Of a stretch of 64,000 nucleotides of DNA, positions 29,094 to 35,010 are shown piece after piece. The stretch spans positions 110,958-174,957 of the forward strand of contig CAYHAM010000001.1 of assembly GCA_964354685.1 (NCBI GenBank), written 5' to 3'. The translations under genes were made by a program, and so were the position numbers. The notes under the pieces are model-generated. The model searched no databases, had not been told where the DNA came from, and worked only from the letters and a program-made list of their open reading frames with translations. This DNA comes from an uncultured Methanosarcinales archaeon (GTDB taxonomy: Archaea > Nanobdellota > Nanobdellia > Woesearchaeales > JAGVZT01). The stretch's first letter is position 1. Each line of letters begins with the position of its first letter.

Positions 29094-31187
29094 ATGAATA
29101 AAAAAGGTGATAGATTGCCTAGAGAAAACAAGCAAAAACCAAAAATAACAAGAGTGAAAAAAAGAGATGGTCGCGTTGTTAAGTTTGATCTACAAAAAAT
29201 AACAGATGCAATATTCAAGGCAACAGTTGCTATTGGTATGCCAAATAAGCAACTTGCAAAAGATCTTTCTCAAAGAGTTGTTAGCTCATTAGAAGCCAAA
29301 CTAAAAAAAGATGAAACCCCTACTGTTGAACAAATTCAAGACTTTGTTGAAACTGTGCTAATGGAATCCGGACAAAACAAAGTTGCAAAAGAGTACATCC
29401 TCTACAGAAAAGAACGAGCTGTTTTAAGAGAAAAAAAATTGTTACTTGGCGTAAATGACGACTTAAAGCTATCTTTGAATGCAATAAAGGTATTAAAAAA
29501 GCGCTTTCTTAGGAAAGACAAAATTGGAAACATTATAGAAACACCAGGAGAAATGTTCAGAAGGGTTGCCAAGGATATTGCCCAAGCAGATTTGATATAT
29601 AAGGAAGATGTAAAGAAAACAGAGCAGGAGTTTTATGAGGTTATGGTAAACCTTGAATTTTTGCCAAATTCCCCAACACTAAGAAATGCAGGGCGAGAAC
29701 TCCAGCAATTGTCAGGCTGTTATGTGCTGCCTATTGAAGACTCTTTAGAATCTATATACAAAGCACTAGAACTCACAGCACTTCTCCACAGAGGAGGTGC
29801 AGGCACAGGCACAAATTTCTCTAAATTAAGACCGAAGAATGATATTGTAGAGGTTACAGGTGGAAAGGCAAGTGGACCAGTTAGTTTTATGAAATTGTTC
29901 GACTATTCCACCCAAGTGATAAATGAGGGCAGCACAAGGCGTGGTGGTATAATGGGAGTACTCAATGTAGACCACCCAGACATCTTTGAATTTATATCAG
30001 CCAAAATAGATTTCAATGAGCTAACAAACTTTAACATCTCTGTTGGTATAACAGATAGCTTTATGAAAGCTGTGAAGAAAGGTGAAGATTATAACCTTAC
30101 AAACCCACGAGATGAAAATCTTTTGGCAAAAGCCAGTGCAAAAGATGTATTTAACAAAATTGTTAACAGCGCTTGGAAGAGTGGTGAGCCAGGATTAATC
30201 TTCTTAGACAAGGTCAACAAACACAACCCCACTCCAGCACTAGGAAAAATTGATGCAACAAACCTATGCGGGGAGGTGCCTTTGCTTGCATACGAGTCAT
30301 GTATCTTGGGAGGCATTAATCTTGCAAAGATGTTAAAATACACAGATTCTTGGACAATAGATTGGGATAGAATAAAGCAAGTTGTTCATATAGGCGTTCA
30401 CTTCCTTGATAACCTAATTGACAGGAATTTCTACCTTGTGAAAGAAATGGAGGATATATCAAAGGCAAACCGCAAGATAGGCCTGGGTGTTATGGGTTTT
30501 GCAGACATTCTTATCAAACTAAAAATCCCATACAACAGTGATAAAGCTGTTAAACTTGCAGAAAATGTTATGAAGTTTATCTTAGAAGAGGGAAGAAAGG
30601 CCTCAGCAGAACTTGCCAAAAAAAGGGGTGTTTTCCCAAATTATAACAAAAGCATATACAAAAAAAACGGCATAAAACTAAGGAATGCAACAATAACAAC
30701 AATAGCACCAACAGGAAACCGTAGCATTATTGCTGATTGCTCTAGTGGGATAGAGCCATTGTTTGCATTATGCTATATCCGAAAAAACCTTTTAGATCTT
30801 GGTGAAGACGAGCTCTTTGAGATGAACCATGAATTTGAGATTGAGATGAAGCAGCGGAGCTTGTACTCAGATAATCTAATGCGTGAGGTTGCTGCTAAAG
30901 GAAGCATCCAGGATTTAAAGCTTCCAGATGATCTGAAAAAAATATTTGTTATATCTCATGATATTTCACCAGAATGGCATGTAAAAATCCAATCAGCATT
31001 CCAGAAATACACAGATAATGCTGTTTCCAAAACTGTTAATTGCCCACACAACTCCACACAGGAAGATATTCAAAAGGTGTTTTTGCAGGCATATGAATCT
31101 GATTGTAAGAGCATAACAGTGTATCGATACGGAAGCAGAGATAAGCAAGTACTCAACATCATTACAGGAGAAGATGCACCAAAATAG
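29094..31187 (+). CDS. nrdJ: Class II (AdoCbl-dependent) ribonucleotide reductase, paralog A, with ATP cone
   Basis: ATP cone VKKRDG; PNSPTL; QLSGCY; TNLCGE; ESCILG; RKIGLGVMG; IAPTG; AVSKTVN. Alternative TTG start at 29115 after GGTGA. Confidence 0.93.
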   Translation: MNKKGDRLPRENKQKPKITRVKKRDGRVVKFDLQKITDAIFKATVAIGMPNKQLAKDLSQRVVSSLEAKLKKDETPTVEQIQDFVETVLMESGQNKVAKEYILYRKERAVLREKKLLLGVNDDLKLSLNAIKVLKKRFLRKDKIGNIIETPGEMFRRVAKDIAQADLIYKEDVKKTEQEFYEVMVNLEFLPNSPTLRNAGRELQQLSGCYVLPIEDSLESIYKALELTALLHRGGAGTGTNFSKLRPKNDIVEVTGGKASGPVSFMKLFDYSTQVINEGSTRRGGIMGVLNVDHPDIFEFISAKIDFNELTNFNISVGITDSFMKAVKKGEDYNLTNPRDENLLAKASAKDVFNKIVNSAWKSGEPGLIFLDKVNKHNPTPALGKIDATNLCGEVPLLAYESCILGGINLAKMLKYTDSWTIDWDRIKQVVHIGVHFLDNLIDRNFYLVKEMEDISKANRKIGLGVMGFADILIKLKIPYNSDKAVKLAENVMKFILEEGRKASAELAKKRGVFPNYNKSIYKKNGIKLRNATITTIAPTGNRSIIADCSSGIEPLFALCYIRKNLLDLGEDELFEMNHEFEIEMKQRSLYSDNLMREVAAKGSIQDLKLPDDLKKIFVISHDISPEWHVKIQSAFQKYTDNAVSKTVNCPHNSTQEDIQKVFLQAYESDCKSITVYRYGSRDKQVLNIITGEDAPK

Positions 31188-31208
31188 CAAAAGGTAGATG
31201 ACCATAAA

Positions 31209-32945: not shown

Positions 32946-35010
32946 GAAAAGGAATGGCAAGGTTGTTGCATTTGATAAAGAAAAAATAGTAACCGCCATT
33001 TTCAAGGCATCTGATGCTGTTGGCACTCCAGATACGAAGCTAGCCAACAAACTCTCTGAAGAGGTTGTCAAACTATTAGAAGATAAATCAAAACCTGGTG
33101 AGAGTCCTACAGTTGAACAGATCCAAGACCTTGTAGAAGATGTTTTGATGAAGAGTGGCCAAAGCAAGATAGCCAAGTCTTATATCCTTTACAGACAGGA
33201 AAGGGTTAAGCTAAGAGAGCAGAAGGCATTGCTTGGAGTCAAAGATGATTTCAAGCTTTCTCTAAATGCCGTCAAAGTACTCAAAAACAAGTTTTTGAGA
33301 AAAGATGAAAACAATACAATTATTGAATCAACATCAGAGATGTTTATGCGAGTTGCAGATAATATCGCCCAAGCTGACAAAAAATACAAAGGCAATATCG
33401 CCAAGGCAAAACAAGAATTCTATGAGGCCATGACAAGGTTAGAGTTCCTTCCAAACGCACCAACACTAAGAAGCGCTGGCAGAAGAACACAACAGTTGTC
33501 TGCTTGTTTTGTATTACCAATAGAAGACTCAATAGTATCAATCTTTGATGCTGTTAAGCACACTGCAATACTATGCCAAAAAGGAGGAGGGGTTGGATTC
33601 AATTTTGGCAAATTAAGACCACAAGGTGAGATTGCCAAAAGAACAGTGAACATTGCTGGTGGACCACTCACTTTCATGAGGGTATTTGATACGGTTGCGA
33701 AAGAGGTGAGTCATAAAGGTTGGCGCTCTTATGGGATGATGGCCATACTACCTGTAGATCATCCCCAAATCATGGAGTTCATTACTTCAAAAGATGATGG
33801 CATCTCTTTAAAAAGCTTCAACATCTCTGTTGGCATAACAGATAGCTTTATGAAAGCATTAGAACATAATAAAGAATACAATTTAATTAACCCACACAAC
33901 AATGAGGTTGTTGAAAAGGTAAAAGCAAAGAAGGTGTTTGATGCCATTGCAGAGCATGCGTGGATAACAGGAGAACCAGGAATTGTTTTCTTGGATAGAT
34001 TAGATAGAGACAACCCAACACCCAATGTTGGAAAAATTGAATCAACAAATGTTTGTGGTGAGCAACCCTTGTTGCCTTATGAATCATGCAACCTCGGCTC
34101 CATTAATCTTGCAAAGGTGTTAAAATACACAGATTCCTGGACAATAGATTGGGACAAGCTGAGGAGAACTGTTCATATTGCCGTACATTTCTTAGACAAT
34201 GTTATAGACATGAATGAATATCCATTGCCTGAGATAGAAAAAATGACAAAAGGAAATAGGAAGATAGGCCTGGGTGTTATGGGTTTTGCAGACATTCTTA
34301 TCAAACTAAAAATTCCATACAACAGTGATGAAGCTGTTAAAATTGTAGAAAAAATTATGAAGTTTATCTTAGAAGAAGGAAGAAAAGCATCAGTAGAGCT
34401 TGCCAAACAGCGTGGCTCATTCCCTAATTTCAAAGGGAGTGTTTTGGACAAAAAAGGATACAAATATATGAGAAATGCAACAATAACAACCATTGCCCCC
34501 ACAGGAACAATATCAGTTATTGGAGATTGTAATGGGGGCATAGAGCCAATATTTGCACTAGCTTACACAAACAAAACCTACACTAGAAGCGATGGTGTCC
34601 CTGAACTAGAAATGATTGTGATAAATAAATTGTTTGAGCAAGAGCTAAGAAGAAGAGATATTTATAGTGGCGAACTAATGAAAGAGGTTGCACAAAAGGG
34701 AAGCATCCAAAATCTAGATCTACCAAAAGATATCAAGAGCGTTTTTGTAACTGCTCATGACATCTCTCCAGAATGGCATGTAAAAATCCAAGCAACATTC
34801 CAGAAATATACTGATAATGCTGTGTCAAAAACAGTGAATTTCTCAAACAATGCAACTGTTGAGGATGTGAAAAAAGTGTATATGCTTGCATACAAGCTTG
34901 GAAGCAAAGGCATAACTATATATAGAGACAAATCAAGACAAGTACAGGTTCTAAACATAGAATCTGTCAAAACAAACCCTGATTCTGGTAAATGCGCAAC
35001 CTGTGATTAA
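32929..35010 (+). CDS. nrdJ: Class II ribonucleotide reductase, paralog C, with ATP cone and C-terminal CxxC
   Basis: ATG 32929 after AGGTGG; IRKRNG ATP cone; PNAPTL; QLSACF; TNVCGEQ; ESCNLG; IAPTGTIS; tail GKCATCD. Confidence 0.93.
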   Translation: MIRKIRKRNGKVVAFDKEKIVTAIFKASDAVGTPDTKLANKLSEEVVKLLEDKSKPGESPTVEQIQDLVEDVLMKSGQSKIAKSYILYRQERVKLREQKALLGVKDDFKLSLNAVKVLKNKFLRKDENNTIIESTSEMFMRVADNIAQADKKYKGNIAKAKQEFYEAMTRLEFLPNAPTLRSAGRRTQQLSACFVLPIEDSIVSIFDAVKHTAILCQKGGGVGFNFGKLRPQGEIAKRTVNIAGGPLTFMRVFDTVAKEVSHKGWRSYGMMAILPVDHPQIMEFITSKDDGISLKSFNISVGITDSFMKALEHNKEYNLINPHNNEVVEKVKAKKVFDAIAEHAWITGEPGIVFLDRLDRDNPTPNVGKIESTNVCGEQPLLPYESCNLGSINLAKVLKYTDSWTIDWDKLRRTVHIAVHFLDNVIDMNEYPLPEIEKMTKGNRKIGLGVMGFADILIKLKIPYNSDEAVKIVEKIMKFILEEGRKASVELAKQRGSFPNFKGSVLDKKGYKYMRNATITTIAPTGTISVIGDCNGGIEPIFALAYTNKTYTRSDGVPELEMIVINKLFEQELRRRDIYSGELMKEVAQKGSIQNLDLPKDIKSVFVTAHDISPEWHVKIQATFQKYTDNAVSKTVNFSNNATVEDVKKVYMLAYKLGSKGITIYRDKSRQVQVLNIESVKTNPDSGKCATCD

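Follow-up and report, generated by a model that had tools for sequence, protein, structure and literature searches.

Three adjacent class II ribonucleotide reductase genes with divergent specificity loops in a woesearchaeal genome: a candidate subfunctionalised three-unit system

To our knowledge, every ribonucleotide reductase (RNR) characterized so far reduces all four substrates at one active site under allosteric control, which is the textbook picture. Here we describe three tandem class II RNR genes, nrdJ-A, nrdJ-B and nrdJ-C (hereafter A, B and C, representing types that we call alpha, beta and gamma), in a stretch of 64,000 nucleotides (nt) of contig CAYHAM010000001.1 from an uncultured archaeon of the Woesearchaeales; this whole stretch is the window referred to below. 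The closest described system is the dimeric NrdJ of Thermotoga maritima (PDB 1XJE/1XJK), which shares with A, B and C the fold, the family, the catalytic residues, the effector anchors D141 and R171, and R207. T. maritima manages with a single gene, whose one loop 2 (VVKQGSRRRGALM) is remodelled by effectors to accept all four substrates (PMC3267527), whereas the window has three genes with three fixed non-canonical loops, and A and B are without a C-terminal Cys tail. Loop 2 links the effector site of one chain to the active site of the other, and its shape differs with dATP/ATP, dTTP and dGTP (PMC3267527, PMC4728125). In T. maritima, Q203 is projected at CDP and UDP, and K202 at GDP (PMC3267527). 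In the Escherichia coli enzyme, the Q294A variant loses activity on CDP and UDP with purine activity kept, and the R298A variant is inactive (PMC4728125).

A class II RNR made from more than one adjacent gene is known from Pseudomonas aeruginosa, as NrdJa and NrdJb (mentioned in PMC3267527; see also PMC4520616). There, one enzyme is cut in two, whereas each of the window genes encodes a whole enzyme. The monomeric class II RNR of Lactobacillus leichmannii demonstrates that one chain can rebuild the specificity site: an insert takes the place of the dimer interface (PMC3267527). This gives the fusion proteins considered below a precedent for a pseudo-dimer within a single polypeptide. The L. 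leichmannii enzyme differs from them in having a single barrel plus the insert, one loop 2 and full four-substrate regulation. Yeast Rnr2 and Rnr4 are paralogous radical-generating small subunits that form a heterodimer with one inactive partner; the likeness lies in the heteromeric paralogs, and the difference is that the window paralogs are catalytic subunits, all of them intact.

Gene A (29094–31187, + strand) encodes an ATP cone, an all-alpha domain and a complete barrel in 697 amino acids (aa). Gene B (31209–32945, +; 578 aa) encodes a complete barrel without an ATP cone, and gene C (32929–35010, +; 693 aa from the ATG at 32929) an ATP cone and a complete barrel. The longest open reading frame (ORF) for C is 32857–35010 (717 aa, TTG start at 32857); alignment to the orthologues in two related genomes, G006 and G007, points to the ATG at 32929 as the likely start. 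Between A and B there is a gap of 21 nt, the last 17 nt of B (89 nt with the TTG start) also belong to C, and C overlaps by 8 nt with a cobO/btuR gene (35003–35674, +; PF02572, E = 1.7e-56) for ATP:corrinoid adenosyltransferase, which makes adenosylcobalamin (AdoCbl). With genes overlapping or nearly abutting and cobO last, the layout is operon-like. Each of A, B and C matches PF02867 (RNR barrel) and PF00317 (all-alpha domain), the ATP cone being confined to A and C. Scores against the NrdJ_Z equivalog model TIGR02504 are 658, 654.6 and 668.9 bits for A, B and C, respectively (cut-off 399.95), and B aligns to T. maritima NrdJ with E of about 1e-116. These matches and the ORF coordinates bear out an earlier note on this DNA, which had described three full catalytic barrels in one operon, with B overlapping C and C overlapping cobO. 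Pairwise identities are 52% (A–B), 59% (A–C) and 55% (B–C). All three proteins probably use AdoCbl as radical generator, as their NrdJ_Z matches and the adjoining cobO suggest indirectly.

A, B and C are the only RNR genes found in this genome, a 13-contig assembly of 1.28 Mb with a completeness rating of 100%. For PF02867 the genome has no match besides A, B and C, a PF00268 search for the class I small subunit NrdB gave no match, and a PF13597 search for class III NrdD gave a single 19.9-bit match elsewhere, under the cut-off.

Residue numbers of T. maritima were transferred through the ungapped blocks of the alignment of B with 1XJK/1XJE, and residue roles follow Table 4 of Zimanyi et al. 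2016 (PMC4728125). In nine sequences, namely A, B and C of the window genome (G000), G006 and G007, the residues C134, N320, C322, E324 and C333 are all kept, in agreement with the intact catalytic set claimed in the earlier note. Also present in 9/9 are D141 and R171, which hold the sugar and phosphates of the dNTP effector (PMC4728125, Table 4), and the loop-2 "latch" R207, the phosphate-binding Arg. Loop 2, equivalent to T. maritima 200–212, reads VINEGSTRRGGIM in A (29916–29954, +), RIMQGRKRHGANI in B (31677–31715, +) and EVSHKGWRSYGMM in C (33703–33741, +). At the Gln203 equivalent, A has E, B has Q and C has H; at the K202 equivalent they have N, M and S, respectively. Other loop 2 changes are R208 to H in B, and R206 to W and G209 to Y in C. 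Loop 1 differs among the three as well, that of B reading NTAAGPIHYI, and S91, a substrate-phosphate contact, is lost in C in all three orthologues. At K158, A has R or K, B has A or S, and C has Q. The canonical relative G002 has Q there too, and we rejected the K158 change as a mark of lost effector binding because canonical relatives also vary at this position.

As a yardstick we used 82 metagenome NrdJ ORFs with an aligned loop 2. This control panel came from a metagenome scan with a beta alignment, the patterns of which are generic. The canonical motif QG[GA].RRGA[NS]M is matched by 72 of the 82, Gln203 is present in 79 and Arg207 in 81. In the same scan 77 of 80 loci have a single RNR ORF, nearly all with a canonical loop 2, and the sole beta-bearing cluster is L184. 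Single-copy relatives of the same order have (I/V)KQGGKRRGANMG as loop 2. None of A, B and C fits the canonical motif, so that the earlier reading of this locus was right about the divergence of loop 2 and where it lies, the E, Q or H at the Gln position, the retained Arg and the differences in loop 1. Two environmental ORFs (L192 585–2234 and L197 2186–3889), each the sole RNR ORF of its locus, have KEGG.RRGANM as loop 2, with Gln203 changed to Glu and the rest canonical. Like A, they have Ile for Asn after Cys333 (ESCILGS), and the two changes may be coupled.

Changes beyond the loops are also fixed. Those specific to A and found in all three orthologues include SGCY, GG(A/S)GTGTNF, NLCGEV, CILGG, PTGNRS and YRY, and the changes of A near the active site comprise P273L, N286I, S289G, T421N and I422R (numbering of B) and YRD to YRY. 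A panel of 75 canonical NrdJ sequences served as the reference, with 219 positions conserved at 80% or more, of which 49 lie in the stretch from Cys134 through loop 2 and 170 outside. Substitutions at these conserved sites that are fixed in all three orthologues number 20 in A, 11 in B and 21 in C. Those of B are concentrated in the region from Cys134 to loop 2 (9/49 inside vs 2/170 outside, descriptive Fisher p = 3e-5), as are those of C (10/49 vs 11/170, descriptive p = 0.01); in A there are 7 inside and 13 outside (descriptive p = 0.16).

Among 40 relatives, the A-B-C-cobO block is also present in G006 and G007, which belong to another genus of the same family and in which the genes overlap by 4 nt (the records L042 and L043 of the genome_contigs scan hold the same block and are counted as G006 and G007). 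Loop 2 is conserved within each paralog clade over the two genera: the core of A, NEGSTRRGG, is identical in 3/3 genomes, B reads MQG(R/S)KRHGAN and C reads S(H/N)(K/S)G(W/F)R(S/A)YGMM. By the Nei-Gojobori method, the comparison of G006 with G007 gives dN/dS of 0.084 for both A and B, 0.095 for C and 0.10 for cobO, values that are rough because dS is 1.4–1.6 and thus close to saturation. Across genera, dN is alike for A, B and C (0.22–0.24). None of the three genes is decaying, and purifying selection on them is equally strong. Two checks that the earlier note had outlined, a search for the triplet in relatives and a test for decay (dN/dS near 1), thus found the block in a second genus and dN/dS of about 0.08–0.095. 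Because the odd loops are kept in orthologues despite near-saturated synonymous sites, their retention goes beyond chance. Among 401 sampled genomes of the order, including eleven flagged unpublished, 247 have a match to B at E <= 1e-30. Identity above 58% is reached in G006 and G007 only, and the triplet is therefore limited to one small clade among the genomes searched. Tandem pairs of NrdJ genes of other kinds occur commonly across the order.

The loop types of this small clade recur in bacteria. A scan with protein A, taking one genome per species, gave 80 loci, 17 of them with more than one NrdJ ORF and 11 with three. Two of these 11 are the archaeal loci of the sister genus; the other nine are from Patescibacteria (candidate phyla radiation, CPR) or unclassified bacterial metagenome-assembled genomes (Chisholmbacteria, Collierbacteria, Microgenomates and others). 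In all nine, the middle gene is of B type, with (K/Q)ILQGAKR(R/Q)G(A/G)N as loop 2 and ...NVP.AASGPVDF(L/V) as loop 1, and in some of them the first gene has VINEGSSRRVAMMG, close to A. The Microgenomates-type genomes G402, G403 and G405 (loci L207, L208, L209 and L211) hold four to five NrdJ-like genes. Here a further type with an ATP cone, loop 2 ILLQ(A/H)G(G/K)RRSGNM and VNLCGEQ stands beside the triplet, and G402 also has a degenerate copy.

Locus L070 resembled a doublet, but its second ORF (1461 aa) encodes a pair of complete barrels followed by a TSCPD domain and a tail rich in Cys. With this double-barrel protein as the query, the best 120 matches are nearly all 1350–1540 aa long, cover 97–100% of the two-unit query and come from Parcubacteria, Kerfeldbacteria, Dojkabacteria/WS6, Andersenbacteria and "Patescibacteria group". 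Both loop-2 regions are aligned in 113 of these 120 fusions, and more than 100 protein clusters consist of a B-like plus C-like double barrel. In the 113, Cys134 is present in unit 1 of 111 and in unit 2 of all, and N-x-C-G-E and the second Cys are present in both units throughout. Unit 1 is of B type in loop 2, which reads x(I/V)LQG(K/S/G)KR(G/H)G(G/A)NM with Gln in 112/113, and also in loop 1, ..AAGP(I/V)H(F/Y)(I/L). Some unit 1 loops nearly equal those of archaeal B (EIMQGSKRHGANMGILN vs RIMQGSKRHGANMGVLN of G006_B). Unit 2 has T(I/V)x(G/T)(R/K)GGRx(L/Q/M)G(S/A)M, without Gln, and shares K-G-x-R-S-x-G-x-M with C; read by eye, the C loop HKGWRSYGMM and TKGGRSQGSM of L070 unit 2 are alike at 6/10 positions. 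The equivalent of R207 is retained in every unit, those of the CPR fusions included. The fusions are annotated merely as "vitamin B12-dependent ribonucleotide reductase" or "NrdZ". The L070 record (genome G401) is labelled Gammaproteobacteria, a label that looks wrong, given a genome size of about 0.7 Mb and a fusion protein whose named relatives are all Patescibacteria. Six fusions of about 1600–1670 aa (P0085, P0113, P0118 and P0120–P0122) have an added PF01725 domain, a Ham1/ITPase-type non-canonical NTP pyrophosphatase.

The fused pair is accompanied by a third unit. Among 121 genomes of the class of L070, an RNR barrel match was found in 93, and exactly three in six (G401, G452, G464, G475, G513 and G515). 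In four fetched loci and in G401 (via L070), a single gene of 591–616 aa lies 25–157 nt upstream of the double-barrel gene; for G513, a single alpha-like gene was fetched, and the other two matches are in one 1369-aa frame on another contig. The upstream genes bear the motifs SACY, (T/S)GAG and TV(N/Y)(N/S/K)AATRR(A/P/G)G, and have in common with A the Tyr after Cys134, a non-Gly residue in the GGG motif and an N...TRR.G loop. The CPR fusion with its upstream NrdJ thus resembles the window locus in its alpha-, beta- and gamma-like loops, in their alpha-beta-gamma order and in being the sole RNR of its genome. It differs in that beta and gamma form one polypeptide with a C-terminal TSCPD domain and Cys-rich tail, whereas in the window the three units are encoded separately and lack these domains. 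All beta-type genes seen adjoin another NrdJ, namely those of the three archaeal loci, the fusions, L184 and ten Microgenomates-type loci, in one of which the contig ends on the upstream side. The recurrence of the A, B and C loop types in Patescibacteria, and the fusion of B-like and C-like units, are new here. That these types recur in CPR three-unit systems, whether independently or by horizontal sharing, argues for a function of the loops.

We propose, with confidence that is evenly balanced, that the locus encodes a subfunctionalised three-unit AdoCbl-dependent RNR whose units jointly cover all substrates, with a B:C heterodimer and with effector control probably kept. This enzyme system would be co-expressed with cobO, the gene for its cofactor-making enzyme, and would be the only route of the cell to deoxyribonucleotides. 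Each paralog, with its own fixed loop 2 and loop 1, would have an active site suited to only some of the substrate–effector combinations. B is likely the pyrimidine reductase (CDP, UDP) by analogy with the model enzymes, because only the B-type unit keeps the loop-2 Gln; A and C are likely the purine reductases. Since beta and gamma are fused in CPR bacteria and the genes for B and C overlap, B and C probably work as a heterodimer, in which the loop 2 of each chain would respond to the effector bound by its partner, and A probably works as a homodimer. Effector binding is expected to persist in A, B and C because D141, R171 and R207 are kept, and dedicated effector and substrate pairs are more likely than units hard-wired without effectors. 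As the earlier note proposed, dTTP could be made from dCMP through a deaminase-like gene downstream (37140–37643) and ThyX. A ThyX gene is present elsewhere on the same contig, and ThyA was searched for in the genome and not found; with the dCMP-deaminase-like gene and ThyX both present, dUMP from dCMP is plausible.

The earlier note had gone further, proposing hard-wired, different substrate preferences and one enzyme per substrate. Intact genes, conserved paralog-specific loops, the status as sole RNRs and the recurrence in CPR bacteria argue for different preferences, but the effector anchors D141 and R171 kept in 9/9 argue against full hard-wiring. The idea of one enzyme per substrate assumes independent enzymes, and the fusion of B-like and C-like units suggests a B+C heterodimer instead.

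Several points weigh against a subfunctionalised three-unit RNR. The substrate assignments are drawn by analogy with three model enzymes, from sequence data, and Zimanyi et al. 2016 (PMC4728125) themselves consider strict conservation of Gln294 unlikely. The retention of D141 and R171 in all nine sequences leaves room for full allosteric switching in each paralog. In the test of fixed changes, the p values are only descriptive because the region was picked after the alignments had been seen, and the sequences are related and hence not independent. In the Microgenomates triplets the third type is different, and some CPR genomes carry four to five paralogs, so that the number three is not universal. 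The fusion is known from bacteria and not from the window archaeon. The links between A and the CPR upstream gene, and between C and CPR unit 2, rest on short motifs; and when the 65 loop-region residues of B (68 columns) are left out, the support for grouping B with the CPR beta units drops to 50. Finally, trees and approximately unbiased (AU) tests do not separate triplication within the lineage, transfer from CPR bacteria and convergence.

In trees from the full alignment, B falls with the CPR beta units (SH-aLRT, an approximate likelihood-ratio support, 98–100), and A and C are sisters (SH-aLRT 80–94), as are the CPR upstream gene and unit 2. Without the loop-region columns of B, the support for A with C rises to 98, and the pair is placed near the canonical Woesearchaeal enzymes. 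In AU tests, a single clade of the nine archaeal paralogs is not rejected (p = 0.275), nor is a clade of A and CPR alpha, which is absent from the best tree (p = 0.366), nor one of C and CPR gamma (p = 0.329), the tree placing C with A. Shared ancestry or convergence would, either way, make the loop types functional states and not drift. A wider proposal, which we hold only tentatively and regard as rather doubtful, is that an RNR architecture not described before is common to DPANN archaea and CPR bacteria, through transfer or convergence. In it, three dedicated active sites would replace the one three-state specificity loop of canonical RNR, as an alpha homodimer and a beta:gamma heterodimer (one chain in many CPR bacteria), each site being wired to one effector and substrate class, with beta for the pyrimidines and alpha and gamma for the two purines. 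The dNTP balance would then be set partly by subunit stoichiometry and not by loop remodelling alone. By recurring in DPANN and CPR, the system adds to the cases in which these two groups of ultra-small cells have biology in common, be it shared or convergent.

Among the alternatives, condition-specific isozymes survive best, although we consider them unlikely. Here each paralog would be a complete four-substrate RNR with normal switching, and the three would differ in activity regulation, reductant or cobamide preference. Such isozymes would fit the retention of D141, R171 and R207, the presence of ATP cones in A and C and none in B, and the CxxC tail that is confined to C of the window genome. 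Many RNR paralogs have been noted, and redundancy is the null hypothesis for them absent evidence of subfunctionalisation, according to Lundin et al. 2010 (PMC3019208). However, separate regulation of A, B and C is unlikely because the genes overlap or abut in one block that resembles a transcription unit, and the CPR fusion forces 1:1 co-expression of two unit types. The concentration of fixed changes of B and C in the specificity region, and a distribution of ATP cones over the unit types that differs by lineage, also speak against isozymes, and redundant genes totalling 6 kb would hardly be maintained at dN/dS of about 0.09 in genomes of 0.7–1.3 Mb.

It is quite improbable that one or two of the paralogs are mainly regulatory or structural partners in a heteromer, contributing an effector site or a reducing tail and little catalysis, like the inactive paralogs of other RNR systems. 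Relatives in the same order do have extra NrdJ-like genes minus catalytic residues, the fusions make hetero-association plausible, and in the window genome the C-terminal Cys pair is found in C only. Against this stand the complete catalytic residues in 9/9 sequences of the window family, the catalytic motifs kept in both units of the 113 aligned fusions (with Cys134 in 111/113 for unit 1) and the same low dN of A, B and C. Examples of the extra NrdJ-like genes of relatives, which may be inactive partner subunits, are G032_1 (L041 5568–7334), without Cys134, N320 and E324, and G010_1 (L030), in which both redox Cys are gone.

The idea that one paralog, most likely A, acts on another substrate class, such as triphosphates or modified or non-canonical nucleotides, is very improbable. 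We know of no RNR with such a role, and the three units must still yield all four dNTPs. The changes of A near the active site outside the loops listed above would suit an altered substrate, as would the Ham1/ITPase domain of some CPR fusions. The Arg of PTGNRS is placed in the phosphate-binding turn by inference from the Ser622 and Ser625 contacts of the E. coli enzyme, as given in PMC4728125, but this NR motif is not common to the CPR alpha-like genes. An assembly or binning error, or recent drifting duplicates, might be suspected in a metagenome-type assembly of 13 contigs, but is effectively refuted by the divergence of the copies (52–59% identity), their same order on one contig in three assemblies, and strong purifying selection on all of them.

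Were the subfunctionalised three-unit RNR confirmed, the units would be natural, stable and separated versions of loop-2 states that are hard to trap in canonical enzymes, and would allow a test of how far loop 2 alone encodes specificity. They would also represent an alternative way of balancing dNTP pools in minimal-genome organisms, which are assumed to depend on salvaged nucleotides. For structural studies, the fusions supply the putative heterodimer in ready-made form. Searches of the open full-text literature (subscription journals and supplements, for example RNRdb material, being outside this scope) returned nothing on tandem or fused NrdJ barrels, on RNR paralog sets in CPR bacteria or Woesearchaeota/DPANN, or on TSCPD together with RNR. 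Term look-ups in PMC9531940 and PMC9669993, two broad papers on RNR phylogeny and extensions, likewise returned, for the terms used, no tandem or fused NrdJ catalytic units and no CPR/DPANN RNR paralog sets.

Neither A nor B ends in a Cys pair or Zn-finger tail of the kind that re-reduces the active site. C of the window genome ends in CATC, a CxxC pair (34993–35004, +) that is the sole C-terminal Cys pair among A, B and C. We rejected this tail as a conserved feature of the system, because it is missing from the orthologues in G006 and G007. The single-copy relative G002 is also without a tail, and the loss is therefore older than the triplet. In several relatives, RNR open frames of 1000–1500 aa occur at L013 (G021), L018, L021 and L014, and in G021 a long insertion in the N-P-C-G-E motif, right after the Cys, looks like an intein. 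G001, of the family of the window archaeon, is rated 100% complete and has zero PF02867 matches; RNR is dispensable in some close relatives, presumably by way of deoxynucleotide salvage.

Of the "nearby dCMP deaminase" of the earlier note, the family assignment stood and the specific identity less so. The gene at 37140–37643 (+) is a member of the dCMP/cytidine deaminase family (PF00383, E = 2.7e-26, 91.8 bits) and a possible dCMP deaminase, but its best NCBIfam match, ComEB, reaches 127.8 bits, under the model cut-off of 219. We treat it as possible context only and do not claim that it belongs to the operon. Its neighbour at 37865–38425 (−) matches NF001977 with 232.8 bits (cut-off 235) and has a weaker match to "endonuclease dU", which hints at a small uracil- or dUMP-related cluster.

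Immediately 3' of cobO there are a small helix-turn-helix gene (35884–36249), a stand-alone NifU/IscU-like gene (36242–36646; PF01592) and a small ferredoxin-like ORF (36573–36878). In G007, cobO is followed by a 120-aa ORF and an IscU-like gene (L036 1079–1824). An IscU-like (TSCPD) domain at the C terminus is found in many class II RNRs (PMC9669993). The IscU-like gene might supply in trans the TSCPD-type domain that A, B and C lack.

Upstream of A, genes for RtcB RNA ligase and archease (27035–28945, −) are divergently oriented. The neighbours at this position in G007 are different (VWA and MoxR-type AAA genes), so that the conserved block begins at A. Among sequencing runs, none of RNA was listed as containing the sequence, and just three DNA runs contained small shares of it. 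A promoter and terminator scan of 28800–36000 found 16 promoter-like and 7 terminator-like sites, with no excess over shuffles, and is uninformative for an archaeon because its models are of bacterial type. Read by eye, the 148-nt region upstream of A is AT-rich.

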